A DNA stretch of 64,000 nucleotides from Patescibacteria group bacterium. Lineage in GTDB: Bacteria; Patescibacteriota; Minisyncoccia; GCA-002772825. The stretch is taken from positions 64,137 through 128,136 of the forward strand of contig JANLHB010000016.1 of the NCBI GenBank assembly GCA_024654625.1, written 5' to 3'. The notes below the pieces were generated by a model. The model saw only the letters and a list, made by a program, of their open reading frames with translations, was not told the origin of the DNA and ran no database searches. Of this stretch, positions 44,019 through 64,000 are shown one piece after another; the first letter of the stretch is position 1, and each line of letters opens with the position of its first letter. A program made the position numbers and the translations under genes.

Positions 44019-44068
44019 GGGAAGCCTAAAAAACCTTTAAAACCGGGAATTTAAGCCAAAAGCTCAAA

Positions 44069-44098
44069 CCCGATGTCTTACGAGACATCGGGTTTTTG
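44069..44098 (+). terminator. rho-independent terminator after secA
   Basis: CCCGATGTCT tacg AGACATCGGG followed by TTTTTG. Confidence 0.75.
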
Positions 44099-44140
44099 TA
44101 TTACCAACAGAAAGTGTCACGGGAATTAACCAATAAAAAT

Positions 44141-44389
44141 ATGAGCACAAACATGAGAAATTCACACTTAGAAAAATCGAAGCGAAACCAGCAGATCAAG
44201 AAGTTGCTGGCCAGCGGAAGGACTCAGGCGGAAGTCGCCAGAGAGTTCAACATCACTGTCCAGCGACTCAACCAACTGGTGCAGAAGTGGGTCTGGCAAG
44301 GACTCCTCGAAAGGAATGAGGAAGGGTTTGCCATGCCCTCAAAGGTCGAACACCAGCAAAAGTTATCCACAACCAATAAAAAAATATGA
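44141..44389 (+). CDS. small HTH DNA-binding protein (first gene of the phage-like region)
   Basis: The GRTQAEVAREFNITVQRLNQLVQKW helix-turn-helix resembles sigma-region-4 or resolvase HTH domains. Codon usage switches to GC-rich here. Confidence 0.45.
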   Translation: MSTNMRNSHLEKSKRNQQIKKLLASGRTQAEVAREFNITVQRLNQLVQKWVWQGLLERNEEGFAMPSKVEHQQKLSTTNKKI

Positions 44390-44682
44390 ACTACGACAAA
44401 TACCAATTTGTCCTCGACTGGGATGATCTCCCCGAGGACTTCAAAGAAGAAAAGATAACCGAGTACATCGAAAAAGGCGGGAAGCGAGCATGCGAGGAAT
44501 GTGACGGGACCGGCTCAACCTCGATACCGGCAAGCCAAGAGGCCGGCGAGATCAAGGACGAAGAAACCCAAACATGCAGTCACTGCGGCGGATCAGGCGA
44601 GGTCGATCCCGATCCAGAGGATCTTCACCAACGAGAAGAAGCCGAAGATTACATCAAAGCGCACTTCCCGATTTATTTCTAA
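44386..44682 (+). CDS. small zinc-finger protein with DnaJ-like CxxCxGxG repeats
   Basis: CEECDGTGS and a later CSHCGGSGE repeat. Confidence 0.45.
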   Translation: MNYDKYQFVLDWDDLPEDFKEEKITEYIEKGGKRACEECDGTGSTSIPASQEAGEIKDEETQTCSHCGGSGEVDPDPEDLHQREEAEDYIKAHFPIYF

Positions 44683-44717
44683 AGGTCGAATTAATAAACC
44701 AATTAAAAATTACAACC

Positions 44718-44966
44718 ATGACAAAAGCACAATTGAAAAAATCCATCGATAAGGAGATTCGAGCGATGAGAAGCAGAATCACCGACATCGTAAAAAACCG
44801 AATCGCCGATCAGATCATCGATGACCTCGGAGACGAAACCGGCGAACTGATGGGAAAGCTGACAGTGGATTTCGTAGACGATCCCAAACTTACCGATTAC
44901 GCCTACGGAAAGATATACGATGCCCTGCTCGAGGAACTCATTAAGTACCTCAAGGGATCGAAATAA
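44718..44966 (+). CDS. hypothetical phage protein
   Basis: An ORF consistent in strand and spacing with its neighbours. It is preceded by the TAAAGGTCGAA motif. Confidence 0.4.
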   Translation: MTKAQLKKSIDKEIRAMRSRITDIVKNRIADQIIDDLGDETGELMGKLTVDFVDDPKLTDYAYGKIYDALLEELIKYLKGSK

Positions 44967-45001
44967 AGGTCGAACATTGAAAATCTAAAACCAACATCAC
45001 T

Positions 45002-45481
45002 ATGACAAACGAATGGCAAGAAAAACTCAAGAAGTTTCAAGAGGCCAGAAAAGCGAAATCCGAATGGTACGAAAAGACCGGCCGGGAAATCCTCGAAGAG
45101 CACCAGATAACGGCCTGCTACAAGTGCGACTGCCGAGGATGGGGACGGGAGACGAAACACAGCCGAGCCCACGCTCATACCAAGAAGCGAATCGTCTGCC
45201 TCGATGCTGTGCCAAAAGGATACAAGTCATTCTTCACCCTCCTGCACGAAATAGGACACATCGTAGCGGAGAAAGCGGACTACTCGAGCGGAGTGCCGAG
45301 ATCGCTGGCCGAACACAACGCTACCGAGTGGGCATATAAGACGCTGAAAGAACATGGCCTGCCGATCAAACGGAAAGTCAAAGGAGAATACGACAGCTAC
45401 ATCAAAGAAAAAGTCGCGCGAGGTCTGAGGCGAGGATTAAAAGAAATCCCAAAAGAACTTCGAAAGCATTTCAAAAGTTAG
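45002..45481 (+). CDS. putative HExxH zinc-metallopeptidase-like protein
   Basis: FFTLLHEIGHIV contains HExxH. The protein is small, consistent with ImmA/IrrE- or SprT-like regulators. Confidence 0.45.
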   Translation: MTNEWQEKLKKFQEARKAKSEWYEKTGREILEEHQITACYKCDCRGWGRETKHSRAHAHTKKRIVCLDAVPKGYKSFFTLLHEIGHIVAEKADYSSGVPRSLAEHNATEWAYKTLKEHGLPIKRKVKGEYDSYIKEKVARGLRRGLKEIPKELRKHFKS

Positions 45482-45540
45482 CAACTGACTCTGCTCTCGA
45501 TGAATCGAGATCAGAGATGAGGGGCTAAAAATAAAAGCAA

Positions 45541-45737
45541 AAGGTCGACCCTCAAGAATCAAGCACATTAATAACCTTATAACTGTTCCCGACCCGCTTC
45601 TGCCGAAGCGAGAAGGGATCTCCCGCCAAGCGGGACGAGTTGGAGCACAGCTATAAGAACTAACCCAGAACCTCTTCCCGAAAGGGAGCTCGGCGAAAGC
45701 CGAAGTTGGAGCAGAGGGAAAGGAACAAAACACAATC
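45541..45737 (+). ncRNA. candidate structured ncRNA (multiple short hairpins with GAAA/GNRA-type loops, internal repeat GTTGGAGCA)
   Basis: The hairpins are GCTTCtgccGAAGC, CCCGCcaaGCGGG, CTCCC-GAAA-GGGAG and TCGGC-GAAA-GCCGA. No convincing ORF lies on the gene strand. Confidence 0.3.
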
Positions 45738-46001
45738 ATGGAAATAACACTCAAGTCCCACCGGGACTACATGAGTCGGATGCTTGGAAGCATGAGCGTC
45801 CGAGATGCCGAAAGACATTCAGGGTTTATTACAGCCCTATATGCTACCGAGGCCTTCTTAGTCGAAAGGACTCGAAAGGAATTAATTAAAAACAAGACCG
45901 ATCAGGCCCTGCTTAAAAAAGGCAAAAGCCCTGCTTTCGCAGAGCTCTCACCTATCTATGTCTTTAGCATAGCAAACCAGCCTGAAGCGGTCAATGCCTA
46001 A
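45738..46001 (+). CDS. hypothetical phage protein
   Basis: ORF with consistent strand and GC. Confidence 0.4.
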   Translation: MEITLKSHRDYMSRMLGSMSVRDAERHSGFITALYATEAFLVERTRKELIKNKTDQALLKKGKSPAFAELSPIYVFSIANQPEAVNA

Positions 46002-46806
46002 CAACATGACGGAAAAAACAACAACCAGAAAAGAGATCGTCGTGCCGCAAGTCGCCCTTCCCCAAAAGCGGGGAAGGCGACCGGCACCGCGAACCGAAGC
46101 GGTGATGCCGGCCGTGTCGGAAGCTCAAGAAAATGTCTATGAGCTTATGGATCGCAAAGACGATCAGCAGATTCTTGCCGAACTGCAAGGGAGATTCTTG
46201 GACGAGTATGTCTACGAATTCCCGCAGGACGGAAAAACGGTCACCGGCCTCTCATGGATCGGGACCAAGGAAGCGAGCCGGGAATATGGAGGCATCCAGG
46301 TCCCGCTCGAAAAATTAAAGATCATTGCCGAGGACGACAAGAGCGTCACGGTGGCGGTCGAGTCGTTTGATGTCTACACCGGCACCTCGCGGATAGGCCT
46401 CAAGCGACAGCAAAAGCACCTCCGCCTCCGAGACGGAAGGGTGCTGGAGAACCCCTTCTACTTCGAGCAAGCGGTATCCAAGGCCCAGCGAAACGCCATC
46501 AACGCGGTGATCCCATACACCTTCGTCAAAGCGTGGATTCAGCTCAAGAGAAAAGGCGCGACGCCAAAACAGATGCAGGAAGCCGAACAGCAAATCCAGG
46601 AGATCAAAGAGCAATCCGTAGATCAGAAAAAGATTCAGATTGCCGCCCTGCTCAAAAAACTCGGACACTCTCCTCAGGGTCCGGCCGAGTATCAAAAGGT
46701 CGTAAAAGACATTACTAACATAAAACTTGAGCCCCAAAACTACGATGAGGTCATCTCGCGATTGCAGATCAGCGTAGCCGAGGCCAATGGAAACGGAAAA
46801 CTATGA
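45994..46806 (+). CDS. hypothetical protein, possible single-strand annealing/recombination partner of the downstream exonuclease
   Basis: It sits immediately upstream of the Cas4-like nuclease, overlapping it, which is a typical SSAP-exonuclease pairing. No family motif was recognised. Confidence 0.4.
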   Translation: MPNNMTEKTTTRKEIVVPQVALPQKRGRRPAPRTEAVMPAVSEAQENVYELMDRKDDQQILAELQGRFLDEYVYEFPQDGKTVTGLSWIGTKEASREYGGIQVPLEKLKIIAEDDKSVTVAVESFDVYTGTSRIGLKRQQKHLRLRDGRVLENPFYFEQAVSKAQRNAINAVIPYTFVKAWIQLKRKGATPKQMQEAEQQIQEIKEQSVDQKKIQIAALLKKLGHSPQGPAEYQKVVKDITNIKLEPQNYDEVISRLQISVAEANGNGKL

Positions 46807-47711
46807 ACGGACAAACACTAACCCACGAAGCCGCCTATCCGGCGGCAGTAAAGGAAAAAGAGAAGCGGCACTTCTCGGTCTCGCAACTGCTCACTTACCA
46901 GAAGTGTCCGCTCCACTACAAATTCCGCTACATCGACGGACTCAAGATTCCGCCAAGATCGGTAATGACGCTGGGAAGCTCGGTCCATGCCGCCCTCGAG
47001 CACAATTTTCGGCAGAAGATCGAAAGCCACAAGGATCTGAAAGTAAACGATGTGCTGGATGCTTTCTCCGACAGCTTTGACTTGGCAAAACAAGAGACGC
47101 TCTGGAATAAGGATGAGAACCCATCAATGGTCAAAGACGAGGGCGTGAATCTGGTGTGCGCCTACCACACCGGCAAAGACCGCCAAGGCGAACCATTCAT
47201 CTACCGAGAGCTCAATCCCAAGACGAGGAAGTACGAAAAGAAACCCGTCAAAGCGCTGTCGCCGACCATTCAACCGCTCATGGTCGAAGAACCCTTCGAG
47301 GTGAACTTCGACAATGTGGACTACAAATTTATCGGCCGAATGGACTTGGTGGATGACAAGATGAGAATCCGAGACACCAAGACGAGCGCGAGAACTCCGA
47401 CTCAAGATCAGGTGGACACTGACCTTCAGATGACCGCCTACAGCATGGGATTCCGGGTAAAGACCGGGAAGATCGAGAAGGGACTCGTGATGGATTACAT
47501 CGTCAAAAACGGCGTGCCGAAAGTGGTCAGCGTCGCCACCAAGAGAACCGAAGAGGATATTCAGCGACTCTTGAATCTTATGGCGAGAATTGCCCATGCC
47601 ATAGATTGCGGAGTGTTCTACTGCAGTTGCAACCCGATATTCTGCAACCCGAATAATTGCGGATATTGGGATTTAGGGAACGGCAGAGGTTGCAGATACG
47701 GAATCGGGTAA
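46803..47711 (+). CDS. PD-(D/E)xK exonuclease, Cas4/RecB-like with C-terminal Cys cluster
   Basis: N-terminal FSVSQLLTYQKCP, catalytic GRMDLV.D...IRDTKTS, QMTAYSMGF (QxxxY), and four C-terminal cysteines (CGVFYCSCNPIFCNPNNC). Confidence 0.7.
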   Translation: MNGQTLTHEAAYPAAVKEKEKRHFSVSQLLTYQKCPLHYKFRYIDGLKIPPRSVMTLGSSVHAALEHNFRQKIESHKDLKVNDVLDAFSDSFDLAKQETLWNKDENPSMVKDEGVNLVCAYHTGKDRQGEPFIYRELNPKTRKYEKKPVKALSPTIQPLMVEEPFEVNFDNVDYKFIGRMDLVDDKMRIRDTKTSARTPTQDQVDTDLQMTAYSMGFRVKTGKIEKGLVMDYIVKNGVPKVVSVATKRTEEDIQRLLNLMARIAHAIDCGVFYCSCNPIFCNPNNCGYWDLGNGRGCRYGIG

Positions 47712-47787
47712 TCGGCAACTGACAGCCGGCCCTACGGATCATCGTAGTTGCGTGATCCAGAAGTAGGACCGGCTGATGAGAGGCCGG

Positions 47788-47816
47788 GAAGAAGTCCGAG
47801 TGCGGACTTCTTCTTC
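47788..47816 (+). terminator. putative terminator hairpin (11-bp perfect stem)
   Basis: GAAGAAGTCCG agtg CGGACTTCTTC followed by a weak U-tract. Confidence 0.35.
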
Positions 47817-47832
47817 GGGGGGAAGAAACTAT

Positions 47833-48084
47833 ATGACATATACAAAAACAACAACTGAATACAGACAACCGACCAGCGCCGAGCAGTACCGCTTTTTGTG
47901 CGGCATTTTGCTTCCGCAAATTCAAGCCGTTTTTGGTTGTGATCGAAAAACCGCGCATAAACGCATGAGAGACAGGCTCATCGAGTGGGGCTACATCAAA
48001 CGATCCCGATCCGAGCTCGCCTATCATCAGACCATAGAGATCACGCAAAGGTTCAAAAATTATTTAGCAAAACAAAAAACATGA
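47833..48084 (+). CDS. hypothetical phage protein
   Basis: ORF; start chosen after the hairpin. Confidence 0.35.
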   Translation: MTYTKTTTEYRQPTSAEQYRFLCGILLPQIQAVFGCDRKTAHKRMRDRLIEWGYIKRSRSELAYHQTIEITQRFKNYLAKQKT

Positions 48085-48305
48085 CTGATTTAGAAAAAGC
48101 AAAAATTTTATATGAGTGCCAATTTTGGATGGGTGGTAACGGTCACTTTTATTTGAGCCCCGAAGATGTGGCTGAAGTTTTGCGACTTATGCGAACAAAG
48201 AAAAACCCCGAAGCCCTAAAGGTCGCATTGCGGGATTTTTACGATAACCACCCGAAAGCAAAAGCGGTCGATCGGGGGTTAGAAGAAAATTATTTGGAAT
48301 ACTAA
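48081..48305 (+). CDS. hypothetical phage protein
   Basis: ATGA-coupled to the upstream ORF. Confidence 0.4.
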   Translation: MTDLEKAKILYECQFWMGGNGHFYLSPEDVAEVLRLMRTKKNPEALKVALRDFYDNHPKAKAVDRGLEENYLEY

Positions 48306-48310
48306 CTTTT

Positions 48311-49060
48311 ATGAAAAACGGATGGGTATCAATTTGGCGTAAACTGCAACATCACTGGATATGGGATGACAGGCCCTTCAGCCGGGCCCAGGCGTGGATT
48401 GACTTGATCATGCGAGCTACGCACAAGAGCGATAAAACAGTGCTGTTTTTGAATAGGAACTTCACTCTTACCCGAGGAGAGCTCGTCACCTCGTTGCGCT
48501 TTTTAGCCAAAGAATGGGGATGGTCAAAAAACAAAGTGAGCAAGTTTTTGGATGCGCTTGCGGCCGACAAAATGATTGAAAAAAGGGACACCGCGCGGGA
48601 CAGCCAATTCACTCGGATTTTGATAGCGAATTACGGGAGATTTCAACCGCAGAAAAACGAGGAGAGGGACAGCAAAAGGGACACGCGAGGGACACGAAAG
48701 GGACAGCAAAAGGACAGGAACAATAATGATAACAATGTTGACAATGGTAACAAAAAAGATAAGCGCACGAAGGAAGCGGAATACGATACTCTTTTTGAGA
48801 TTTTCTGGAAAGAGTATCCAAACCATAAATCCAGAAAAAGAGCCCTGCAATCTTGGCATAAGTTGAAGCCAACTCCTGAACTGACGCAAGTCGTTGTCAA
48901 TGCGGTGCGGAAAGCGAGAGAAAGCCCGCAGTGGAAAAAAGATAACGGTCAGTTTATACCCCATCCCTCAACCTACTTGAACCAAGAGCGATGGAACGAT
49001 GAGTTGGAATCACCAAAAACAAAGGTCGGAAAATACGATCACTTAATAACCAAAGATTAA
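48311..49060 (+). CDS. phage replication initiation/replisome-organizer-like protein (N-terminal winged-helix)
   Basis: N-terminal W.SIWRKL..HWIW...FS..QAWIDLIM.A is typical of phage replication-initiator N-domains. It lies upstream of the DnaC-like loader. Confidence 0.45.
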   Translation: MKNGWVSIWRKLQHHWIWDDRPFSRAQAWIDLIMRATHKSDKTVLFLNRNFTLTRGELVTSLRFLAKEWGWSKNKVSKFLDALAADKMIEKRDTARDSQFTRILIANYGRFQPQKNEERDSKRDTRGTRKGQQKDRNNNDNNVDNGNKKDKRTKEAEYDTLFEIFWKEYPNHKSRKRALQSWHKLKPTPELTQVVVNAVRKARESPQWKKDNGQFIPHPSTYLNQERWNDELESPKTKVGKYDHLITKD

Positions 49061-49062
49061 AC

Positions 49063-49848
49063 ATGGAAAAAATTGAAACAACCATAAAAGAAAATCAGCC
49101 GGCCCCGCCGCCGACTGCCTGCAGGCGATGCGGGAGTTTGACTGCGCCGAAGTTTATCACGCTTCTCGGCTGGCGCCAGCAGGATCATTGCGATTCTTGC
49201 AGTGTGATTATTGCCGAAGAAAGAGAGAGGCGGGAAACGGAAACCCATAAAAAGATGACCATAGAAACCTATCTTGAACGATCCGGCATCGTTCGTGGAA
49301 TTTTGGCGCGAATGACCTTTGAAACATTCGATAACTCACATAAGGGCAAAGCGTATGAAATCGTCAAAGAATACGCCGAAGGATTCGGCCGGGAGACGAC
49401 AAGCGGCCTCATGCTTTATGGAAAAGCTGGCTCGGGCAAAACACATCTCGCGGTTGCAATAACCCGGCACATCATCGAGCAAAAACAGATTCAAGTCAGG
49501 TTTGCCCGCGTTGTCGATTTGCTGGCAGAGATCAGAAAAACCTTTAACGAGAACGAGCAGTATCGCACTGAAAACGAATCGGACTTGATAAGCCGATACA
49601 CCTCCGCGCCTCTGCTTGTCATTGACGATTTGGGCGCGGAAAAGACCACTGACTGGGTCCGCCAGATTCTGTATCAAATCATTGACGAGCGATGGATAGA
49701 GCAGAAGCCGATCATTGTTACCTCGAACCTCAACCTTGAAGAACTGGAAGCGAGGTTTGAGGAAAGGATAGCTTCCCGAGTCGCCGGCATGTGCCGGCTG
49801 GTCGAGTCCCGGGATTACGATTACCGAATCAAGAAATCAACACCATGA
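49063..49848 (+). CDS. DnaC/IstB-like AAA+ helicase loader
   Basis: Walker A YGKAGSGKTHLAVAI and Walker B LLVIDDLGAEKTTDW. There is an N-terminal CxxC...CxxC zinc ribbon. Confidence 0.8.
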   Translation: MEKIETTIKENQPAPPPTACRRCGSLTAPKFITLLGWRQQDHCDSCSVIIAEERERRETETHKKMTIETYLERSGIVRGILARMTFETFDNSHKGKAYEIVKEYAEGFGRETTSGLMLYGKAGSGKTHLAVAITRHIIEQKQIQVRFARVVDLLAEIRKTFNENEQYRTENESDLISRYTSAPLLVIDDLGAEKTTDWVRQILYQIIDERWIEQKPIIVTSNLNLEELEARFEERIASRVAGMCRLVESRDYDYRIKKSTP

Positions 49849-50078
49849 CTTTAATCACAGGAACGGAAAAACAAATCGAAGAAGGCGCGCGCGATTACTG
49901 GACGATAGAAGCGATGACGAAATACGGCGGATCGTTTGTGAAAGCTCTTGCCGAAGCGGCAAGACACGCTGACAGGCAAAACCTTGTGAAGATAAAAGCG
50001 ACATGGATCGAATACTGGACGGAGTACGAAAAGACGGGACGCGAGATGGAAGAAAAACACGAGCAAGGAAAAATATAA
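49845..50078 (+). CDS. hypothetical phage protein
   Basis: ATGA overlap with the upstream gene. Confidence 0.4.
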   Translation: MTLITGTEKQIEEGARDYWTIEAMTKYGGSFVKALAEAARHADRQNLVKIKATWIEYWTEYEKTGREMEEKHEQGKI

Positions 50079-50112
50079 AAGGTCGAAGTAAAAAATTAAT
50101 TTCAACAAAATT

Positions 50113-50337
50113 ATGTCAAGAAAAATAGGAGCGTTATGGATCAAGAAATCGCAGGACGGGAGAAATTACTTGTCCGGCGTGATCCAGGACTTAAGCGGAG
50201 ACATCAACATTGCTGTCTTCAAGAACGATAAAAAAGAAGCGGACAAACAGCCCGATTATAATATCGTGTTGTCGGAAAGATCGAAGCCGGCCCCTCAGGT
50301 CGAAGGAGCCCCGGGTCCAGACGATATCCCGTTCTAA
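50113..50337 (+). CDS. 74-aa protein ending in an SSB-type C-terminal tail (…PGPDDIPF)
   Basis: The C-terminal DDIPF matches the conserved SSB-Ct protein-interaction motif. The gene lies in the replication module and is preceded by the TAAAAGGTCGAAG motif. Confidence 0.5.
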   Translation: MSRKIGALWIKKSQDGRNYLSGVIQDLSGDINIAVFKNDKKEADKQPDYNIVLSERSKPAPQVEGAPGPDDIPF

Positions 50338-50354
50338 TGCCAGAATTGAGCGGA

Positions 50355-50408
50355 TTTGCCAAAAACCTTGCCACTTGTTTGCCCCTGTGTGCGATTCTTT
50401 GGCAAAAG
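50355..50408. repeat. three direct TTGCC(A/C) repeats at 11-12 bp phasing, nested in an inverted repeat (ATTTGCCAAAA / TTTGGCAAA)
   Basis: Read directly from the sequence between the SSB-tail gene and the KH-domain gene. Confidence 0.5.
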
Positions 50409-50480
50409 CCGACCCGTACCACCTGATAAAGAAAAAGGCGAAAGGGGCGAAAAATTAATCAACTAATTACAAAACGAATT

Positions 50481-50765
50481 ATGGAATCACAAGACAAAGC
50501 AGTATTGGAGACAATACTCAAAGCAATAGTAAGTCAGCCCGAAAAAGTATTGGTGAATCGCACGACGGATGAGATGGGCGTGTTGCTCACAGTTAAGCTC
50601 GGTGAGGGCGATGCCGGCGTTGTTATCGGTAAGCAAGGCCAGAGCATCAACGCGATCCGAAGCGTCATCAACATCGTAGGTCGAAAAAACCAAGCGAAAG
50701 TAAATGTGAAGCTCGATGTGCCAGAGGTGCGCCGAGGGACAGCGAGACCAGAATCCCATCTATGA
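50481..50765 (+). CDS. KH-domain RNA-binding protein (KhpA/UPF0109-like)
   Basis: VIGKQGQSINAIRSV is a GxxG KH motif. The size is ~90 aa. Confidence 0.6.
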   Translation: MESQDKAVLETILKAIVSQPEKVLVNRTTDEMGVLLTVKLGEGDAGVVIGKQGQSINAIRSVINIVGRKNQAKVNVKLDVPEVRRGTARPESHL

Positions 50766-51532
50766 AAAATAAAAAAGTCGAAAAACGAATATCGCAATTT
50801 GTGTCTGTTGAGAAATGCCGGCCGAATGCTTGGAATCCAAGAGGCATGAACAAAAAAGAGTTTGAGGCACTGAAGCTCTCAATCAGTGAGCACGGGCAGA
50901 CCCAGCCGATTCAAGTCCGGCCGATTAAAGACGGATACGAAATCATTGGCGGTTACCACCGCTGGCTGGCCATGAAAGAACTGAAACTTTTGGAAGTGGA
51001 AGTAAACATCACGCCGATGAATGATGATGAATCAAAAATCTTCAGCTTGCAGGATAACATTCACGGTAATGATGACTTGCTTCGTCTTGGAAAACTTGTC
51101 TACGAACTGACCGAGAAAGGATTCTCGATTAAAAAGATTGCTCAAGTGTATGGCACGGAAGAAGATGCCTTGAAAGACGCGCTCAAGGTCGCCCAAGAAG
51201 ATATTTCAAAGAAGTTGCAGAAGCTCAAAGAGGAAATGACCAAAGAAAACTTTGTCGAGCTGTCTTTTATCGTTGACGAGAAACCAAAAGATCAACTCAA
51301 AACATTCGTGAAAGAGGTCACAAAGTTCGCCGAAACCAAGGGTGCGGAAGTTGAGTCGGTGAAAGAAAAAATCAATCCGAAAAAGGTCACGATTGCGCTG
51401 ATTACCTTTAGCGTCACCGGCCCGCAGGCCAAAGTAATAAACCGAGCCATAGAAAAGCTGATAAAGGCCGAAAAGGTGTCGAAATCAAGGGCACTGGAAT
51501 TGATATGCGCGGACTTTATGGCCGGCAACTAA
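50762..51532 (+). CDS. ParB-like N-terminal nuclease-domain protein
   Basis: NPRGMNK and later SISEHGQTQPIQVR and GGYHRWLA blocks match ParB/Srx signatures. Confidence 0.7.
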   Translation: MKNKKVEKRISQFVSVEKCRPNAWNPRGMNKKEFEALKLSISEHGQTQPIQVRPIKDGYEIIGGYHRWLAMKELKLLEVEVNITPMNDDESKIFSLQDNIHGNDDLLRLGKLVYELTEKGFSIKKIAQVYGTEEDALKDALKVAQEDISKKLQKLKEEMTKENFVELSFIVDEKPKDQLKTFVKEVTKFAETKGAEVESVKEKINPKKVTIALITFSVTGPQAKVINRAIEKLIKAEKVSKSRALELICADFMAGN

Positions 51533-51560
51533 GGACACTTAAGGACACTTAAGGACACTT
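51527..51560. repeat. tandem repeat, 3.4 × AAGGACACTT (10-mer)
   Basis: Perfect copies between the ParB-like stop and the small-terminase start. Confidence 0.85.
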
Positions 51561-51562
51561 TT

Positions 51563-54495: not shown

Positions 54496-54578
54496 TGCAC
54501 AAAGATATGCTATAATAAAAATACAACTGAATAGTCCTTGCTCTGCGGGGCAAGCGTGAATCGTATATTCCGAGTCTG

Positions 54579-55793: not shown

Positions 55794-56050
55794 AATTTTT
55801 ATTGAGAAAAGTTAAAGAATTTATCAATTGGATTCGCGGGCTCTTCAAAGAATCGTCCGGCATTGCCATTTACGAGGTGCTCGCAATAACCCCGGGCAGA
55901 AACCGAGTATGGGTCAACTCAAGCGTTGGCGTGATTAAAAAACCAAACGGCTCGATCCCGTCAAAACTCCTCGATGAGTTTGGCGGATACAACCGGGAAC
56001 GCTATATGCGATTTATTTCACAAAAATTATGGCCTCAATCGACCAACTAA
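55790..56050 (+). CDS. hypothetical phage protein
   Basis: ATGA-coupled to the methyltransferase gene. Confidence 0.35.
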   Translation: MKFLLRKVKEFINWIRGLFKESSGIAIYEVLAITPGRNRVWVNSSVGVIKKPNGSIPSKLLDEFGGYNRERYMRFISQKLWPQSTN

Positions 56051-57981
56051 AAAAATACTACGAGGAATACGATGACGCGAAAAAACACTTCTTGTATTAC
56101 TACAAGCCCGAATTTGATCGCGCCTACAAGCAATTTGCCCAGTACACCGGCGACAGAGCCAAAGAGCTTGAACGGACAACCGAGGGAGATGTTTGGCAAT
56201 CGAACGCCTACTGGGGCCAAGTATTCGCCTACATCAAAATCTTCCTGCAAAAGACCATCGGCATGGCTCCCGATTTCAAGCTCGAGGGCAAAAACTCCGA
56301 ACCCTTAAAACAAGTCATTGACTGGTTGTGGGAGGTCGGCATGTCAGATGACTTGATCGACCACTTCCTGCAGACATTTATCTGCGGCACGAGCTTAGGC
56401 AAAGACATTTTGAAAAAAGAGGTGAGAAAAAGACGCAAAAAAGAAGTCGTCATGATCGAAGAGGAACCGCCGACGGGGCTCTTTGGAGAAATGGTCGGCA
56501 AGCTCAAATCTTTCTACAAAAAACTCACCACGAAATCCGAGGTTGCCAGCATCACTTTCCGTCCCGATTTTGAACCAGTGGATATGTATAATTGCTATCC
56601 GCATCCGAGGATGAAGAAGCTCTCGGACAAACTTCCACTTTTTCAACGCTATGTGCTGACGCTCGATGAAATGAAAGAGCAATATCCAAATGTTCCAAAA
56701 ACTTTTTGGAATCAATTCAGTGACAAATCCGGCAATGTGGTTTTGCAGGGCGGAGACATTACCGACTACGCATGGGTGAGAAAAGAAGTGCTGACCGAAG
56801 CGCGGCAAAACATTAGAGACACTAAAGCGTCAACTCCGTTCGGAGGCGGCGACACCGGCATACCGTCCGATCAGCCGCAGATGAAAGAAAAGCTATTCGA
56901 GGTGGTTGAGCGATGGGTTGACGACCACTTGGTCGTGTTTCTGCCAATGTCAGGGGTGCCAAAAGAGATCAAGGACATCGACAATCCCTATGACCATAAC
57001 GAAAAACCATACAAGAGAATCGTCTTCTTCCCGAGGCCGTTCCAGTTTTACGGATTTGGCATTGTGAAGCTCGTGGAAAAACTTCAGGACTTACTGAACT
57101 CGGTCGTAAACCAGCGCGTGGATTCGGTCACTTTGAAAATGCACAGCATGATAGCCGCCGCGCCAGTGTCCCTAACAGGACGCAGAAAAGGCATAAATAT
57201 CCGGCCACTCGGTATTTTATGGACAAACGATCCGAACTCCATACGAGAGCTGAAATTTGGAGATGTGAATCCGTCCGCCTATCTTGAGCCAGACAAGATC
57301 AAGGAGATGATGCGGGTGATTATCGGCATAGATGACTACTCGACGCTCAAAGGAACTGACCGCAAAGAAACCGCCACCGTCGCATCGTTCATGCGCGAAG
57401 CAACTCTTGAAGGAGTGAAGCTATTTCTCATCATGATGCGAAATGCCTACACCGGCCACTTTGACCATTGGATTTCGATGATTAAGCAGTTCTGGACTAG
57501 GCGAAGCGTTGTGCCGAAAAAAGCCCTTGCCATTATCGATGACTTTGCCGACACGGACTTCACTCCGCTCGAGGAGAGCTGGATCGGAGAGAACGGAGAG
57601 CATCTGCTTTTCAATGATGAATACGAACTCTCCATCGAGGCCTCGTCTACGCTTGCCACTTCAACCGAACTCAAAAAAGCGAAGGATTTGGAACTTTGGG
57701 AATTAGTCAAAGATGCCGGCGACATGATTGACGAGGAGTCCGGCCAAATTTACAGCATCAAGAAATTCAAGATTTTAATGAAAGTCATTGATGACTACGG
57801 CTGGGAAGCGGAAAACTATGTCGTGCCAAGACAGATTCCGCAAGAGGTCGTTGATAACCAAGCAATACCGCCCGCGGCTCCGCCCGCAGGGTCACCGCCG
57901 GCAGAGGTCCCGGCGCCCCGAGCCCCGTCCTTAGCTGGACGGCGAGCAGGAGGAGAATTGGCGGCGGCATTAAGACAATAA
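56029..57981 (+). CDS. putative portal protein
   Basis: A 650-aa protein at the portal position, downstream of the terminase and upstream of scaffold and capsid. It has a Pro/Ala-rich C-terminal tail. No motif-level confirmation. Confidence 0.4.
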   Translation: MASIDQLKKYYEEYDDAKKHFLYYYKPEFDRAYKQFAQYTGDRAKELERTTEGDVWQSNAYWGQVFAYIKIFLQKTIGMAPDFKLEGKNSEPLKQVIDWLWEVGMSDDLIDHFLQTFICGTSLGKDILKKEVRKRRKKEVVMIEEEPPTGLFGEMVGKLKSFYKKLTTKSEVASITFRPDFEPVDMYNCYPHPRMKKLSDKLPLFQRYVLTLDEMKEQYPNVPKTFWNQFSDKSGNVVLQGGDITDYAWVRKEVLTEARQNIRDTKASTPFGGGDTGIPSDQPQMKEKLFEVVERWVDDHLVVFLPMSGVPKEIKDIDNPYDHNEKPYKRIVFFPRPFQFYGFGIVKLVEKLQDLLNSVVNQRVDSVTLKMHSMIAAAPVSLTGRRKGINIRPLGILWTNDPNSIRELKFGDVNPSAYLEPDKIKEMMRVIIGIDDYSTLKGTDRKETATVASFMREATLEGVKLFLIMMRNAYTGHFDHWISMIKQFWTRRSVVPKKALAIIDDFADTDFTPLEESWIGENGEHLLFNDEYELSIEASSTLATSTELKKAKDLELWELVKDAGDMIDEESGQIYSIKKFKILMKVIDDYGWEAENYVVPRQIPQEVVDNQAIPPAAPPAGSPPAEVPAPRAPSLAGRRAGGELAAALRQ

Positions 57982-57985
57982 ATTT

Positions 57986-58342
57986 ATGGCTCACACTGAC
58001 GAATTAAAAAAAGTAAAAGGAACGAAAATGCCGGCGGTTGAAAAACCGTCCGAGCCGAAGCGCGAATTGCCTCGCGTGACTTTTACCGCCGATGATGTTC
58101 CAGAAATCAAGGATTGGAAAATTGGTGGCAAATATTATCTCGAACTTGAAGTTGAGCAGGTTGCGGCGGAAAAAGACCGCTACGGATACGAGGGCGAAAA
58201 AGAAAGGCCGCTCACTGCGACATTTAAGGTAATGGCGGTGAAAGCTCTGAACCACGAGTCCAAAAAAGAAAACTCCGATGGTGAGAAGAAGAAAAAAGAG
58301 ATCGAGTTCGGCAATTACAAAAATCCGAATCGCATTGGCTAA
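57986..58342 (+). CDS. hypothetical phage protein
   Basis: ORF in the structural module. Confidence 0.4.
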   Translation: MAHTDELKKVKGTKMPAVEKPSEPKRELPRVTFTADDVPEIKDWKIGGKYYLELEVEQVAAEKDRYGYEGEKERPLTATFKVMAVKALNHESKKENSDGEKKKKEIEFGNYKNPNRIG

Positions 58343-58346
58343 ATCT

Positions 58347-58601
58347 ATGAACGAACACAATTACACACTCAATAAAGAAAGCGAGCAGGATTTGGTGAAT
58401 CTGTATGAGACGAAATATTTTCGCGCCTTGCAGGCATTGGTGGACGAGGAATTGGACGGCACTAAAACCTGCATGCTCAATAAGAATTTGAGCGCGGACG
58501 ATTTGCGATTTTATCAAGGCCGCGCCGAGGGACTAGCGGTCGTTCTTATAAGAATCAAGGCCTTATACGAAGAGGCAATGAGAGAACCTAAAAATCAATA
58601 A
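58347..58601 (+). CDS. hypothetical phage protein
   Basis: ORF. Confidence 0.35.
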   Translation: MNEHNYTLNKESEQDLVNLYETKYFRALQALVDEELDGTKTCMLNKNLSADDLRFYQGRAEGLAVVLIRIKALYEEAMREPKNQ

Positions 58602-58602
58602 T

Positions 58603-58764
58603 ATGCCATACGGACTTCCCAAAAAATTGAATACTTCCGCCAACGATGCCAAGGTCGAGCGTTGCGTTGAGGAGAATATGGCGAAAGGAATGGAAAAAGA
58701 ACTCGCCATCCGTATTTGCAAAGCATCAATCATGGGCACAACTAAAAGGTCGAAGAAAAAATAG
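58603..58764 (+). CDS. 53-aa hypothetical protein
   Basis: ATGA-coupled small ORF. Confidence 0.25.
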   Translation: MPYGLPKKLNTSANDAKVERCVEENMAKGMEKELAIRICKASIMGTTKRSKKK

Positions 58765-58894
58765 GTTTTCCGCGAGAGGTTCAACTCGGCGCTTTATGAG
58801 AATCGAGTTGAGCCTCTTAGCGAGGTTCTGCGGACGCCTCCCTTCTGAGGTCAAAAGGAAGGAAGAAGCAATCCGTGTAAATTAATCAAATCCT

Positions 58895-59794
58895 ATGACG
58901 AAAGAAACCAAAGCGGACGCCATCCCGAAAGACGACAAAGAAACCTTTGACGATCTTGTCGGGAAGGACCAATCCGCAAAAGAATCTTCGGACACTCCCA
59001 AAGAGGGAGAACAATCCGATAAAAAACCAGACGCCGCGGGTGAAAAACCCGAGGAGAAATCTGGCGAAACTCCCGGCGAAGAGGGAGAAAGTCCTGAAGG
59101 CGAAACGCCCAAAAAAGGCGGGGAACCCGAAGGCGAAAAACTCTTCTGGGACAAGTTTAAGAGTGAGTCCGACGCCAAGAAATCTTATGGCGAAGCCCAG
59201 GGAAAAATTATCGAGCAGGGCAAGGAGTTGAACGAACTCAAAACCCACGCCAAAGAAAATGAAGATTTTCTGGCGACGCTCGATAAAGCTCTGCTCAAAA
59301 ATCCCGAACTTGCCGAACAGCTGAAGTCGGTCATTGCCGGCGAAGCCAAAGGCGAGGAAGAGGACGAAGAGCCAGAAGAGGGCGCTCAAGATAAGGATCT
59401 CGACGCGAAAATCGAGCGAAAGCTCGAGGAGCGTGAGAACCGGGTCAAAATCAAGCGCGAGCGGGACGCATGGATCGAAAAGCATCCAGAATTTAAAAAG
59501 CCCGAAATCGGACATAAGGTTCTGGACTTGCTTGAAGAAGAGGGTTTGCCTTTCACCGCTAAAACTTTGGATATCGCATACAACTATGTGACCAAAGAAA
59601 GCCAAGTGAAAAAGGCAAAGGATGAGACAGCCAAAGAAACCGCGAAGCGCGAAGAGGCGGCCGCTCTCGAGCGAGAAGAGGCGTCAGCCGTTGGCGGCGG
59701 ATCACCGCAAGCCAAAGGCAAAGTCCCCCAAGATGCGAATCCATTCGATGATCTTGTGGGTGATTCAGTAAATCCAAACATAGTGCGGACATAA
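58895..59794 (+). CDS. putative scaffolding protein (highly charged Lys/Glu-rich, helical)
   Basis: The composition is charged and helical. It has an FDDLVG motif at both the N- and C-termini and lies immediately upstream of the capsid gene. Confidence 0.45.
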   Translation: MTKETKADAIPKDDKETFDDLVGKDQSAKESSDTPKEGEQSDKKPDAAGEKPEEKSGETPGEEGESPEGETPKKGGEPEGEKLFWDKFKSESDAKKSYGEAQGKIIEQGKELNELKTHAKENEDFLATLDKALLKNPELAEQLKSVIAGEAKGEEEDEEPEEGAQDKDLDAKIERKLEERENRVKIKRERDAWIEKHPEFKKPEIGHKVLDLLEEEGLPFTAKTLDIAYNYVTKESQVKKAKDETAKETAKREEAAALEREEASAVGGGSPQAKGKVPQDANPFDDLVGDSVNPNIVRT

Positions 59795-59849
59795 CTCGGC
59801 GGAGATTGAGGTCTTCTTACCGGGAGAATCCGCAAACAGCTAAACGCAT

Positions 59850-61070
59850 ATGGCAGAACCAACACACATACAGGGAACGAGAGACACTCTCATTATTGAG
59901 CAATCTCGGCGCATCCCCGATGTAGATGACAGAATCTACATTCTTGAACCGAACGAATCTCCATTGACCGCTTTTCTTACGCAAGTGGGAAAGATCGGCG
60001 ACGGAGGCGGGAAGTTCAGAGGAACCGCGCTTCAAAAGAGAGGCATTCATAATCCAGAGTTTACCGAATACGAAGATCAGTACTCCGGCGTCTGGGCGCA
60101 GATTAACAACGCCGCCGGCTATACTTCCGGCGCCACCGCTCTTGTTGTTGATAATCCGGGAGCCGCAATCTTCACCAAGTACGACCTCGTGAAAGTAGTC
60201 CGAACGGGCGAAATCATGCGAGTCACTTCGGTGAACTACTCCACGAACACCTTGACGGTAACTCGTGGGGCGGGCGCGACTGCGGCCGCGGCAATTCTCG
60301 ACAACGATTGGCTTCTCGTTATCGGTCCGGCGTTCGAAGAAGGTTCGAAGTCCGGCGATTCCAACACGACTAAGCTCGTGAAGGTCACGAACTATACCCA
60401 AATCTTCAAAACGAAATTTGGCGTGACTCTTACCGCCGACGCTTCGAAACTCTATCCGGCCGAAGTCGCCAAAGACCTTAAGTACTTGAGAGCCAAATAC
60501 GGAATTGAGCACGCCAAGAAAATTGAGCGGGCTTACTGGTTTGGCGAGAAGAAAGAGGTTGTCGGTCCAGACAACAAGCCGCTTCGCTTGACCGGCGGAA
60601 TCTTGGAAGCGATCAACTCCGCGGGCAATGTCCAGGACGAAGCGTCCTCGGGCTTGACCGAATCGGAGTTCCGAAACTTCCTGCGCGATTACGCCTTCAA
60701 GTTCGGCTCGTCCGAGAAGTACTTCTTCTGCGGCAACATTGTTCTGGGTTATTTGGAGAGTTTCTCTGCGAATAACTTGAGGACAGTTCCCGGCGAGAAA
60801 ACCTACGGCGTGGAAGTGCGCAAGTGGATCTCCTCGTTCGGCGCGTTGAATATCGTTCGGCATCCAATGTTTGATAATCAGTACTCCGGCATGGGCGTGG
60901 TGCTTGACCTCGGAACGGTTAAGCATTGCCCGCTTGCCAACCGCGACACGGCATTGGAAACGAGCATTCAGGAAAACGACGCTGACGAGCAGGTGGATCA
61001 GTACAAATCCGAAGTCGGTCTTCAGAGAACGAACTTCGAGAAAAACGCGCTTCTCAAAGGAGTCGTCTAA
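59850..61070 (+). CDS. putative major capsid protein
   Basis: A 406-aa protein directly after the scaffold gene. Assignment is by position and size only. Confidence 0.45.
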   Translation: MAEPTHIQGTRDTLIIEQSRRIPDVDDRIYILEPNESPLTAFLTQVGKIGDGGGKFRGTALQKRGIHNPEFTEYEDQYSGVWAQINNAAGYTSGATALVVDNPGAAIFTKYDLVKVVRTGEIMRVTSVNYSTNTLTVTRGAGATAAAAILDNDWLLVIGPAFEEGSKSGDSNTTKLVKVTNYTQIFKTKFGVTLTADASKLYPAEVAKDLKYLRAKYGIEHAKKIERAYWFGEKKEVVGPDNKPLRLTGGILEAINSAGNVQDEASSGLTESEFRNFLRDYAFKFGSSEKYFFCGNIVLGYLESFSANNLRTVPGEKTYGVEVRKWISSFGALNIVRHPMFDNQYSGMGVVLDLGTVKHCPLANRDTALETSIQENDADEQVDQYKSEVGLQRTNFEKNALLKGVV

Positions 61071-61210
61071 ACGGAAGCGTGATCCCGGCTTTCTTACTCA
61101 ACGGGATATCAGGCGTTGCCCTGACCATCTGATGCTGATTTGTTTCGGCGTCAGTGGTTAGGGTGACGCGTTGAGAGGTCGCAACGAACGATCACTTAAA
61201 AGTCAAAGCC

Positions 61211-61627
61211 ATGCCAACACCGAAATACAGCGAAAAAGAGCTTTTGAATCTCATCCTTGATGAGGTCAATCAAGCGATTAAACAGCGGAGAGTAAATCCG
61301 ATTCTTACTTCGGAATTGCTCGCATCGGGCGCGCGGACAGTGTCGGGCGAAGGATCTTCCATTGATCTCGGAAATACCAGAGAACTTATTGTGACTCTGG
61401 ATGTATCCGCGGCCAGCGGAACATCGCCGACGCTCGATGTAAAACTTCAGCATTCTCCCGACGGATCAATGTGGTCTGACTTGGGCACCGCGTTTGCCCA
61501 AAAAACAGGCGTAAGTCGAGAGGTCAAGGTGTTCACCCAATATCACCGCTATGTGAAAGCGGTTTACACCATCGCGGGCACATCGCCGAGCTTTACCTTT
61601 TCGGTCGAGGCGACGGCGAAAGAATAA
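61211..61627 (+). CDS. hypothetical structural protein
   Basis: ORF. Confidence 0.4.
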   Translation: MPTPKYSEKELLNLILDEVNQAIKQRRVNPILTSELLASGARTVSGEGSSIDLGNTRELIVTLDVSAASGTSPTLDVKLQHSPDGSMWSDLGTAFAQKTGVSREVKVFTQYHRYVKAVYTIAGTSPSFTFSVEATAKE

Positions 61628-61646
61628 ATTAACCACAAAAATTCCC

Positions 61647-62009
61647 ATGACATTATTTAATTCACGCATCAAAACTTTGCGAATCGTCTTGACGCCATCG
61701 CGGCCGATTTACGAGCAGGGCGTCCGGCTCGGCGATACGCAGGGAAAGTATGTCCAATTTGAGAACGGGCGTTTTCAAACGGACGACAATGAAACTATCG
61801 AGAAATTGCAAAAACTCCCCAACTTCGGAGTTGATTTCTGGAAAGTTTCCGATGAGCCGGCAAAGCCGCAAGAACCGCAGGCAAACCAAGAAAGCGATCT
61901 TGGATCGCTGACTAAGCAGGAGCTTATCGAGCTTGCGAAGTCAAAAAACATAGAGGTCGATGAAGGCCTAACCAAGGTAGAAATTATCGCGCGTCTCAAG
62001 ACGCAATAA
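61647..62009 (+). CDS. hypothetical protein with Rho-N/SAP-like C-terminal helix-hairpin (LTKQELIELAKSKNIEV)
   Basis: Motif-level evidence only. Confidence 0.35.
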   Translation: MTLFNSRIKTLRIVLTPSRPIYEQGVRLGDTQGKYVQFENGRFQTDDNETIEKLQKLPNFGVDFWKVSDEPAKPQEPQANQESDLGSLTKQELIELAKSKNIEVDEGLTKVEIIARLKTQ

Positions 62010-62014
62010 ATCCT

Positions 62015-62284
62015 ATGGATTACAAAATCGTAAAAATCGAAAAAACAAACGACGGCATTGAAGTAGAGGTGCAGTTCCTCGAGGACGAGGAAGTCGTTGA
62101 TTCCAGAAAATACCTCTACAACGCATCGCTCGAGCAGGATGAGTTGGAATCAGCAGTGAGAAAAGACGCGGAAGGAGTAATCGCCGATTATGAACTCCGC
62201 GCTGAAAATGCAGAAAGAGATCGGCGAGAAAAAGAGGTCGACACGAAAGTCGAGGGATTAAAAGAATCCTTTGACTTGGAATAG
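62015..62284 (+). CDS. hypothetical phage protein
   Basis: ORF. Confidence 0.35.
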   Translation: MDYKIVKIEKTNDGIEVEVQFLEDEEVVDSRKYLYNASLEQDELESAVRKDAEGVIADYELRAENAERDRREKEVDTKVEGLKESFDLE

Positions 62285-62313
62285 AGGTCAAATAAATTAA
62301 TTAAATCAATACC

Positions 62314-62886
62314 ATGACTAATCTTGAAAAAAAGGGAACATTCCGTCTCAAACAGAATATTGAATATGTTCTGCGGGACAAAAACGGCAAAGTAAAACAG
62401 CTTTGGAACGAGAACGCGCTTGCCCGATTCTTCAGAGAAGAACTCGGCATCAGTTTGCCTCGCATCCCGTTGCTCTTCGGTTTCTGGGGCCTGACTCTTA
62501 ACATTCACAACCTCGTTGTGAATGCAGGCATGGCCGGCGTTGCTTCCCGAATCAACGGAGCTGGCGGCGAAGCGGCATTCACCTTCATTGCTATCGGCAC
62601 TGGAGTTGTTGCACCGGCGGCTGGCGATACCACGCTTGGCACAGAAATCACCACCGGCGGCGGCGCTCGAGCGGCGGCAACTGCATCCCGAGTCACGACA
62701 GATGTGACGAACGATACGGCCCAGCTCGTGCTGACATTCAACTTCACCGCTTCTTTTGCGGTGACCGAATCCGGCGCGCTCAACGCGGCCGCGGCAGGCG
62801 TCCTGCTTGCTCGCCAGACCTTCAGCGCGATCAATGTCGCCAACGGCGACAGCTTGCAGGTCACTTGGAAGTTCGATGTCGATTAA
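62314..62886 (+). CDS. Gly/Ala/Thr-rich putative structural protein
   Basis: Composition. It is preceded by the AGAGGTCAAA variant of the intercistronic motif. Confidence 0.4.
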   Translation: MTNLEKKGTFRLKQNIEYVLRDKNGKVKQLWNENALARFFREELGISLPRIPLLFGFWGLTLNIHNLVVNAGMAGVASRINGAGGEAAFTFIAIGTGVVAPAAGDTTLGTEITTGGGARAAATASRVTTDVTNDTAQLVLTFNFTASFAVTESGALNAAAAGVLLARQTFSAINVANGDSLQVTWKFDVD

Positions 62887-62975
62887 TAGTGAAGTTTGAG
62901 GTCAACTTCAGAAATCAAAGCCCGATGAAAAAGTTTGAAAATTGGGCTTTCTCATCGTTGGTTTATTGTCCCTGA

Positions 62976-63362
62976 ATGCCGATAAAAGCGTTCAAAATTT
63001 GGTATAGCGACAAAACCTTTGATTCCGCGCAAGCAACGGCAAAGGATATTTTTGGCGCGTGGAAAGAAGCCCCAGACCAGGATATCCAAGTGGTCGTATT
63101 TTACTTTGACGAAAACGACGGACTGGGGCGTCCCGCAAGAAGATATATGCGCGGTCAGGATTTTTACGCAATGGATGGCGAGGAGAATCTTTCTGAGAGT
63201 TTTGACGATATTACGAAAATTAAGGGCGAAGTGAAATATGGGAAGTACACCACTGATGAAAACATTTCCAAAATTGAAGTTGAGTCTCTCGGCGATTATG
63301 GCGAGGGTTGGCTGTGGTCGAAGCCAGTGACACACATTCAAGGCATAAAAACCGACATTTGA
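62976..63362 (+). CDS. hypothetical phage protein
   Basis: ORF. Confidence 0.4.
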   Translation: MPIKAFKIWYSDKTFDSAQATAKDIFGAWKEAPDQDIQVVVFYFDENDGLGRPARRYMRGQDFYAMDGEENLSESFDDITKIKGEVKYGKYTTDENISKIEVESLGDYGEGWLWSKPVTHIQGIKTDI

Positions 63363-63363
63363 T

Positions 63364-64000
63364 ATGGCTACTTACATACTAAAAGCAAAAACTTCGGACT
63401 TGTCTGGCGGCGCTGATTTCAACCGAGAGATTTCTGCCGATGCTGAAACAGCAGGTTCGATTACCGTAACAGTTGCTAACGGCGCAACTGAAACGAGCTA
63501 CGGATTTACCAAGCCATATAAACCCAATAACGCTGACTGGGAAACCGCTACACTTGTTGCCGAGGTTCGCGTAACGACTGCAAACGCCAATATGTTTGTG
63601 AAAGCCAGCGCCTCGCGTCTTAATAGTGCTGGTGCAGTTCAAGAAACTTCGGGAGAAAGCGCCGAGGTGCAATTAGACCTTGTCGGCACATATGGATTGA
63701 CAATTCCAAGCATGAATTGGACGGCTGGCAATTGTACCGACCGCCTCCGCATCAATTATATTTTTAGAAGCGCCAATGCTCACGGAGGCGCAATTAATGT
63801 TGTGATTGAAACTGGCACAATCCAAGCTGAAGTCACAACTTCTATCACCGAGAACGCAGGAACTTGCCGAGCTACCTTCGTCAAGAATCTTCGTCAATAC
63901 AAGCCCGACCACAAAACCATTATCGCCGAGGGCGGCAGTACGGGCGGCGATGGCGTTTCAAATAATATTTATCTCGATTCGCTCATTGCTTCGCGCGACA
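63364..64000 (+). CDS. 5' part of a structural protein gene that runs off the window
   Basis: ATG at 63364 with no stop to the window edge in that frame. The strand is consistent and the composition is Ala/Thr/Gly-rich. The gene is not in the ORF track because it is open-ended. Confidence 0.45.
   Translation, partial: MATYILKAKTSDLSGGADFNREISADAETAGSITVTVANGATETSYGFTKPYKPNNADWETATLVAEVRVTTANANMFVKASASRLNSAGAVQETSGESAEVQLDLVGTYGLTIPSMNWTAGNCTDRLRINYIFRSANAHGGAINVVIETGTIQAEVTTSITENAGTCRATFVKNLRQYKPDHKTIIAEGGSTGGDGVSNNIYLDSLIASRD

Follow-up and report, generated by a model that had tools for sequence, protein, structure and literature searches.

A temperate podovirus-like phage probably integrated in the last codons of secA in a groundwater Parcubacteria bacterium

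The 64,000-bp stretch analysed here (the window; positions 64,137 to 128,136 of contig JANLHB010000016.1, assembly GCA_024654625.1) carries the secA gene of a Patescibacteria bacterium and, joined to the end of that gene, about 20 kb of phage DNA that runs off the right end of the window. From 44013 to 64000, all genes lie on the plus strand, in the order early and replication genes, terminase, portal, capsid and first tail gene (Table 1). Domain and family matches bore out the content that a first-pass annotation, made from the letters alone, had read there on one strand (replication initiator, DnaC-like loader, Cas4-like exonuclease, ParB, terminase, Dam methyltransferase, portal and capsid); the scaffold gene that it also listed has the right position between portal and capsid but no family match. 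The composition breaks sharply at the same place. Guanine-plus-cytosine (GC) content is 0.358 over 1-44012 and 0.477 over 44013-64000, AT skew moves from about 0 in the host part to +0.15-0.37 past the break, and the tetranucleotide comparison that had been suggested for this region gave correlations to the host profile, in 4-kb blocks, of 0.94-0.98 before 44 kb and 0.29-0.71 after it. An abrupt switch to about 50% GC had been placed at 44019, right after secA; the break is indeed abrupt and at the end of secA, but the value is nearer 48%, and alignment against the empty-site contig described below set the host/phage boundary at 44012/44013, 6 nt inside the end of the secA open reading frame (ORF).

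The window's secA is an exact match to NCBI protein MCR4342545.1. Its C-terminus reads ...CPCGSGKKYKKCHGS, encoded at the very end by CAT GGG TCA TGA (CHGS), after which phage DNA follows. A SecA search against one genome per GTDB species returned only Patescibacteria, with Parcubacteria-group metagenome-assembled genomes (MAGs) as the best matches at 87-88% identity, and the window is syntenic with these MAGs upstream of and through secA. The AT-rich, reduced-genome host suspected in the first-pass annotation is thus a Patescibacteria/Parcubacteria bacterium by SecA search. None of the 80 species representatives had this phage beside secA (0/80), so the insertion is sporadic.

The unoccupied site was found in a second MAG. 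Contig JANLIG010000003.1 of GCA_024653605.1 (L082; 153,258 bp) is 100.000% identical to window positions 30223-44012 over 13,790 bp and then diverges totally. This MAG also encodes the window's MurB and represents the same strain. Its secA allele ends CAT GGG AGG TAA (CHGR*) and is followed by a Y1_Tnp-like gene, DUF1653, PilM, NUDIX, GatB, GAPDH and RpiB, a gene block that also stands after secA in three related species. The empty-site SecA (CHGR) and the lysogen-type SecA (CHGS) occur in separate MAGs. That the same strain exists with identical flanks and without the phage implies a very recent gain or loss. Among the explanations listed at first, the "recently acquired phage" is the one supported.

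The same junction was recovered from other hosts. A 39-nt exact pattern from the phage side matched two Joint Genome Institute (JGI) contigs from different projects, L089 (Ga0082335_1002730, 31.8 kb) and L090 (Ga0209541_10053035), in which secA is joined to a related phage at the same nucleotide as in the window, directly after GTGTCATGGG. In pairwise comparisons of the three loci, the 60 nt to the left of this core, which hold the zinc-finger codons, are 65-68% identical and sequence further left is at random level; the core itself is identical at 10/10 positions, and the 120 nt to its right are 98-99% identical. The phages of L089 and L090 are 84-87% identical to that of the window, and 98.0% identical to each other over the only 452 bp that can be compared. 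At the join, the three hosts have only 10-11 nt in common, and the occurrence of the same junction base three times on so short a common stretch excludes k-mer mis-assembly.

An assembly chimera had been proposed as one alternative. Such a false join of phage and Parcubacteria contigs where secA ends, made in assembly or binning, would fit the abrupt composition switch, the sister MAG of the same strain without the phage, the fragmentary, low-coverage state of the phage in several per-sample Hainich assemblies and the fact that this particular strain-phage junction is known from one assembly only. We nevertheless consider it highly improbable. The exact empty site speaks against it, as does the fact that two independently assembled contigs, from separate JGI projects and from hosts with only 10-11 nt in common, have their junction at the same nucleotide. 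So does the phage arm, the most conserved part of the phage, in which an in-frame codon, a stop codon and a terminator are provided. Such an arm reads as the signature of a real, adapted attachment (att) site. In the NCBI record, secA MCR4342545.1 (CHGS) and the capsid protein MCR4342573.1 are on one 213,731-bp MAG contig, 28 accession numbers apart.

Although the first-pass annotation had recognised no att features at the left junction, both the 10-nt core and a second, 13-nt copy of it are present (Table 1). The core extends to 13 nt, AAAGTGTCATGGG, in the window, L090 and L082, and from these alignments the crossover must have taken place inside the stretch bearing GTGTCATGGG or at its right edge. 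Immediately to the right lies the most conserved DNA of the phage, 44013-44132, identical at 118-119 of 120 positions across the three hosts. The hairpin within it (44066-44095) had been taken for secA's own terminator; it belongs to the phage side, since the empty site lacks it and the phages of the other hosts have it at 98-99% conservation. Such a phage-supplied terminator would end secA transcription and insulate the early genes of the phage. The second core copy lies in direct orientation 111 bp inside the phage, with counterparts at 1249-1262 of L089 and 4364-4377 of L090; in all, the core pattern matches twice in the 64 kb, against 0.12 matches expected by chance. Read in the secA frame, this copy would give ...KCHGN*, and the two copies bracket the replacement stop and the terminator. 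The bracketed segment could have been captured from an ancestral secA tail, or could serve as an accessory binding site for the recombinase. By-eye inspection of attB for dyad symmetry around the crossover gave nothing convincing. As for the protein, SecA of bacteria of the candidate phyla radiation (CPR) naturally ends in CHG plus one variable residue, so the R-to-S change in the last residue should be neutral. The literature search gave no account of secA's 3' end serving as an att site, and this attachment site appears to be previously undescribed. No tRNA, tmRNA or Rfam family was detected in the window and no recombinase domain in any ORF of 44-64 kb, in keeping with the earlier remark that neither an integrase nor a tRNA was in view.

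The three hosts are far apart. The window's SecA is 60% identical to that of L090, and that of L089 is 45-56% identical to the other two over comparable regions; the DNA upstream in L090 is syntenic with Nealsonbacteria MAG contigs. Host GC contents are 0.36, 0.42 and 0.52, and the phage stays at about 0.47 throughout. The GC divergence, which had seemed unusual for a prophage, is real and no sign of an artefact: the phage lineage holds to about 47% whether its hosts are at 36%, 42% or 52% GC. Exact copies of the phage proteins were also found on short low-coverage contigs from the Hainich groundwater wells H14, H41 and H51, in several filter fractions, and the capsid sequence recurs on Hainich contigs in ENA. 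Because the zinc-finger motif is conserved across divergent hosts, it could offer a near-universal docking site. That a cosmopolitan phage lineage uses SecA zinc-finger DNA in this manner, lysogenising CPR hosts that differ at about the order level or above, is a tentative extension to which we give slightly less than even credence. If true, this would count as direct physical evidence that the phage host range is unusually wide and that genes can be transferred across the CPR by such a route; the same junction in very different hosts already challenges the usual assumption of a narrow host range.

Taken together, these results make it likely that 44013-64000 represents the left half of a temperate, podovirus-like phage that looks intact and is site-specifically integrated in the last codons of secA in a Parcubacteria host from Hainich groundwater. 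This reading includes a size of about 37-41 kb and a capsid, portal and adaptor of SU10 type, the adaptor being known from relatives. The integration, its exact junction, the empty site and the recurrence of the junction in other hosts are direct observations; that the prophage is complete beyond 64 kb and currently active is what we infer. In the mechanism that we propose, the target would be the DNA for SecA's conserved C-terminal zinc finger (...KKCHG). A phage recombinase would pair attP with these codons and exchange strands in GTGTCATGGG or at its right edge, and the left phage arm would then provide secA with a fresh final codon, a stop and a strong terminator, such that the essential secA stays functional and the early phage genes are protected against read-through. 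The recombinase and attR would lie at the right end, and past them the native secA tail that was displaced (AGG TAA...) and the downstream genes of the host. The predicted attR is ...GTGTCATGGG joined to AGGTAAAAATTAATAATCC (also written GTGTCATGGG joined to AGGTAAAAATTAATAATCCGGC), with the Y1_Tnp-like gene, DUF1653 and PilM after it.

The right half of the phage was approached through relatives. The 190-aa virion protein has 1,581 homologs, many of them on contigs 34-41 kb long; in some cases NCBI places the contig in a Wolfebacteria, Collierbacteria, Sungbacteria or Magasanikbacteria MAG. Many family contigs cluster at 38-41 kb, and a capsid cluster at >=90% identity has 54 members from five data sources. 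The closest long contig, Logan SRR22388043_30047 (40.7 kb; L094/L100), runs colinear with the window, its proteins being 64-96% identical. Beyond the window equivalent it encodes a 2,295-aa tail protein, orthologous to the large tail protein that runs past the window end, then BppU_N, SU10_adaptor, a 566-aa and a 455-aa protein and, further on, a 1,640-aa polyvalent protein, a holin-like protein, Amidase_3 and a lysozyme-like gene. A second contig, L101, is colinear up to the stop codon of the lysozyme-like gene and then diverges; SU10_adaptor is present in L094, L100 and L101. By comparison with these colinear contigs, the phage would consist of a conserved part of about 36-37 kb and a variable right-end region or cargo, some 37-41 kb in all. 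In L094, L100 and L101, a search for attR gave neither a core copy (<=2 mismatches) nor a remnant of the SecA C-terminus, and no compared host locus matched the right end of L100 or L101. In IMG/VR, searches with two junction patterns, with the nuclease and with the incomplete tail gene gave no match or only distant phages, with no close relative, and a homology search with the N-terminus of the tail gene returned only short fragments. As models, the 53-kb L093 and the 124.7-kb "Collierbacteria" contig L096 proved too distant or differently organised. Among GenBank phages, the best capsid identity was 29% and there was no DNA match; SU10_MCP and SU10_portal accordingly place the structural module in the SU10 superfamily at superfamily level only.

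A defective or truncated prophage remnant would agree with the mere 20 kb visible and with the lack of an identified repressor/integrase pair. It is, however, an unlikely account, as the whole 20 kb, with intact ORFs, is colinear with contigs of about 40 kb that hold complete virion and lysis modules, the 100% identical flanks of the empty site imply a very recent gain or loss, exact protein copies occur in several wells and filter fractions, and family contigs cluster at 38-41 kb. Still less probable, and of negligible weight in our view, is an extrachromosomal element or phage-plasmid, another of the possibilities raised at first. It would suit the phage's own replication initiator, helicase loader and ParB-domain protein, but replication modules are common in temperate phages, the ParB_N protein falls below the TIGR00180 cut-off and has no ParA partner in the phage region of the window, no nucleotide match was found in 72,556 plasmids, and the element is covalently joined to the chromosomal secA in three contigs.

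Several points weigh against a site-specifically integrated, complete phage. Neither attR nor attP was observed in any of the compared contigs, which makes both the crossover point within the core and the completeness of the phage presumptive; the 98% identity of L089 and L090 is drawn from 452 bp only. No recombinase was found in the window, nor within about 1.1 kb past the conserved right boundary in L100 and L101. An alignment-based IMG/VR scan added three more distant relatives. In L103 and L104, whose capsids are about 80% identical, a minus-strand gene past the lysis cassette has the domains Resolvase, Recombinase and Zn_ribbon_recom and encodes a large serine recombinase (504 aa in L103, 456 aa in L104; nearest NCBIfam models CcrB and XisF). 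These two enzymes share only 34% identity, and the flank of the L104 recombinase was rejected as an att-site model, its neighbour being a type I restriction gene and not secA. In L105 and L164 the lysis genes run straight into early genes, with no recombinase between them. With recombinases 34% identical, one of them away from secA and other members without any, one cannot simply carry over to the window phage the target site or even the existence of the enzyme, and the lineage seems to have members with an integrase as well as members lacking one.

By analogy with L103 and L104, we lean slightly towards a large serine recombinase as the enzyme of the window phage, with a minus-strand gene expected next to attR at the far right end. 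The junction identity of at least 10 nt is compatible with such an enzyme, though not diagnostic of it. A real integration by another catalyst, be it a tyrosine integrase in the right end, a host recombinase or a homology-driven process through the PD-(D/E)XK nuclease and its partner, appears to us rather unlikely, if still worth serious attention. The lack of a recombinase in the window and within about 1.1 kb of the conserved right boundary in the two closest relatives would accord with it, and the phage does encode this nuclease and an adjoining conserved protein of unknown function. Tyrosine integrases, besides, typically insert at the 3' end of a gene and replace that end, and two unrelated prophages directly after secA in low-GC hosts have such enzymes. 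Against it, both recombinases found in this phage family are of the large serine type and stand at the expected place by the att end, and the short identity between attB and the arm (at least 10 nt) fits a serine recombinase, whereas homologous recombination would need a longer stretch to be efficient. The candidate partner of the nuclease, a 270-aa protein so considered by position only, has no recombinase domain; a PDB sequence search with it gave noise only, and its structure model was unusable (predicted local distance difference test score 38.8).

Temperate phages with large serine recombinases that integrate in protein-coding genes include phiC31, Bxb1, TP901-1, Listeria A118 (comK) and SPbeta (spsM). 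The window phage resembles them in having its target inside an ORF, a short shared junction sequence and no tRNA, and two of its relatives encode such recombinases. Of these, A118 and SPbeta interrupt comK and spsM, which are thereby inactivated; the window phage, in contrast, keeps its essential target intact by replacing the last codon and the terminator, its host belongs to the CPR, and its serine recombinase is only inferred. The e14 element inserts at the 3' end of icd in E. coli and supplies a substitute gene end. The arm of the window phage likewise restores the frame and the gene end, leaving an important gene functional, but it exchanges one codon, a stop and a terminator, and its target is a zinc-finger motif common to distant hosts. 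Classic 3'-end cases such as e14 use tyrosine integrases and, as far as known, longer identity segments. With SU10-like short-tailed phages, the window phage shares an SU10_MCP capsid, a portal just at the SU10_portal cut-off and, in colinear relatives, an SU10_adaptor; it differs from them in its capsid identity of at most 29% to GenBank phages, the lack of any DNA match, its size of about 40 kb, its temperate character and its CPR host.

The two secA-adjacent prophages mentioned above, inserted right past secA or at its 3' end, are on IMG/VR contigs L111 (4553-9989) and L114 (176-4804), from hosts of GC 0.24-0.33. Both have a tyrosine integrase at the secA-proximal end, L114 also has a CI/Peptidase_S24 repressor, and neither has genes homologous to the window phage, except for a weak replication-protein match in L114 (34%, 82 aa). 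The secA 3' end may thus be a recurrent phage attachment locus beyond the CPR.

CPR/Patescibacteria make up a large share of groundwater communities, and their phages are known almost only through host predictions and provirus counts. A survey of Hainich groundwater recorded proviruses in 106 of 519 Patescibacteria MAGs (20.4%; PMC12960796), so a CPR prophage is not new in kind. That survey concerns the same aquifer and host phylum and, in the part of it available to us, gives counts, without an att site, an empty-site allele, a recombinase or a cross-host comparison. The element described here is ordinary in principle, an integrated temperate phage, and unusually well resolved for a CPR host, as the locus gives an exact attL together with the matching empty site from the same strain and aquifer. 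The signature ...GTGTCATGGG joined to TCATGAGGGAAGCC (SecA CHGS*, then GGGAAGCC) could be used to count lysogens and non-lysogens in time-series metagenomes, and the recombinase, if recovered, would be a candidate integration tool for organisms without genetic systems.

Table 1. Features at the secA junction and in the phage part of the window (window positions)
Feature	Coordinates	Strand	Details
secA, 834 aa	41514..44018	+	hybrid: 41514-44012 host, 44013-44018 (TCA TGA) phage
attL core	44000..44012	+	GTGTCATGGG at 44003-44012, 10/10 identical in window, L089, L090 and empty site L082
Probable prophage, left ~20 kb	44013..64000	+	rest placed beyond the window from colinear relatives
Phage att arm (P')	44013..44140	+	replacement codon and stop, spacer, terminator, second core copy, leader of first phage gene
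Intrinsic terminator	44066..44100	+	hairpin 44066-44095; perfect 13-bp stem, 4-nt loop, T-run
Second core copy, direct orientation	44111..44123	+	AAAGTGTCACGGG; perfect AAAGTGTCATGGGA (14 nt) in L089, L090
First phage gene, small helix-turn-helix (HTH) DNA-binding regulator	44141..44389	+	MarR_2, KorA, HTH_28 matches, all below cut-off
159-aa protein	45002..45481	+	weak phrog_87 (metalloprotease) match, E=1e-5; no Pfam/NCBIfam match
270-aa protein, phrog_3657	45994..46806	+	overlaps nuclease gene start; 97% identical in L089
PD-(D/E)XK (Cas4-like) nuclease	46803..47711	+	PDDEXK_1, E=1.8e-23
Replication initiator / DnaD-like helicase-loader protein	48311..49060	+	phrog_270, E=5.6e-31; phrog_2514
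DnaC/IstB-like AAA+ helicase loader	49063..49848	+	IstB_IS21, E=4.8e-19; NF005992 194.6 bits, above cut-off
ParB N-terminal-domain protein	50762..51532	+	ParB_N, E=1e-13; TIGR00180 56 bits, cut-off 58.45
Terminase, small (51563-52024) and large (51981-53597)	51563..53597	+	
Phage PDDEXK_15 endonuclease	53590..54072	+	domain match
D12-class N6-adenine DNA methyltransferase (Dam-like)	54765..55793	+	MethyltransfD12, E=2.3e-23
Portal, SU10/P22 type	56029..57981	+	SU10_portal 30.8 bits, cut-off 30
Putative scaffold	58895..59794	+	position only, no family match; conserved in all relatives
Major capsid protein	59850..61070	+	SU10_MCP, E=2e-39, 136 bits (cut-off 24.1); = MCR4342573.1
Head-completion and early tail genes	61211..64000	+	Bbp16-like 138 aa; 120-aa; 89-aa; 190-aa virion; 128-aa; large tail protein N-terminus

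Among the remaining genes of the phage part, the 159-aa protein could be part of a lysogeny switch. Exact protein look-ups with the first phage ORF (TTG start) and with the PD-(D/E)XK nuclease gave no match. The capsid protein MCR4342573.1 is labelled by NCBI only as "DUF5309 domain-containing protein", for which reason the prophage may be overlooked in the public MAG record.

Further observations were made on the compared contigs. Plus-strand early genes follow the lysis genes at 16843-21565 of L105 and 18491-21725 of L164, the latter with an HTH_17 gene and a 700-aa unknown protein. Between the lysis genes and the recombinase of L104 (18713-20226) lie a SMODS-like nucleotidyltransferase (weak match) and a Cap15 effector (strong match), a pair resembling a cyclic-oligonucleotide-based anti-phage signalling system (CBASS) that looks like phage-borne anti-phage defence cargo. 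Cassettes of glycosyltransferase, aminotransferase and methyltransferase genes flank homologs of the 190-aa virion protein or of tail genes in L096 (GCA_016219325.1, JACRNH010000024.1, 110240-124693) and L093 (12295-15337) and could be phage glycosylation genes or host flank; L096 ends inside its phage-like part.

On the host side, an IS200/Y1_Tnp-like gene (218-224 aa) stands directly 3' of secA in L082 (13842-14498) and in a related species (L004, 6207-6881). Positions 1-41000 of the window are mostly a long cell-surface glycan cluster with GT2, GT4, GT9, PMT_2, Wzy_C/TPR, epimerase and LPG_synthase_TM genes. Within this cluster, one GT9 and three radical-SAM enzymes, two of them with SPASM, form a sub-block at 17159-21754 with a GC content of 0.41-0.45, compared with about 0.33 nearby, which may be a horizontally acquired island.

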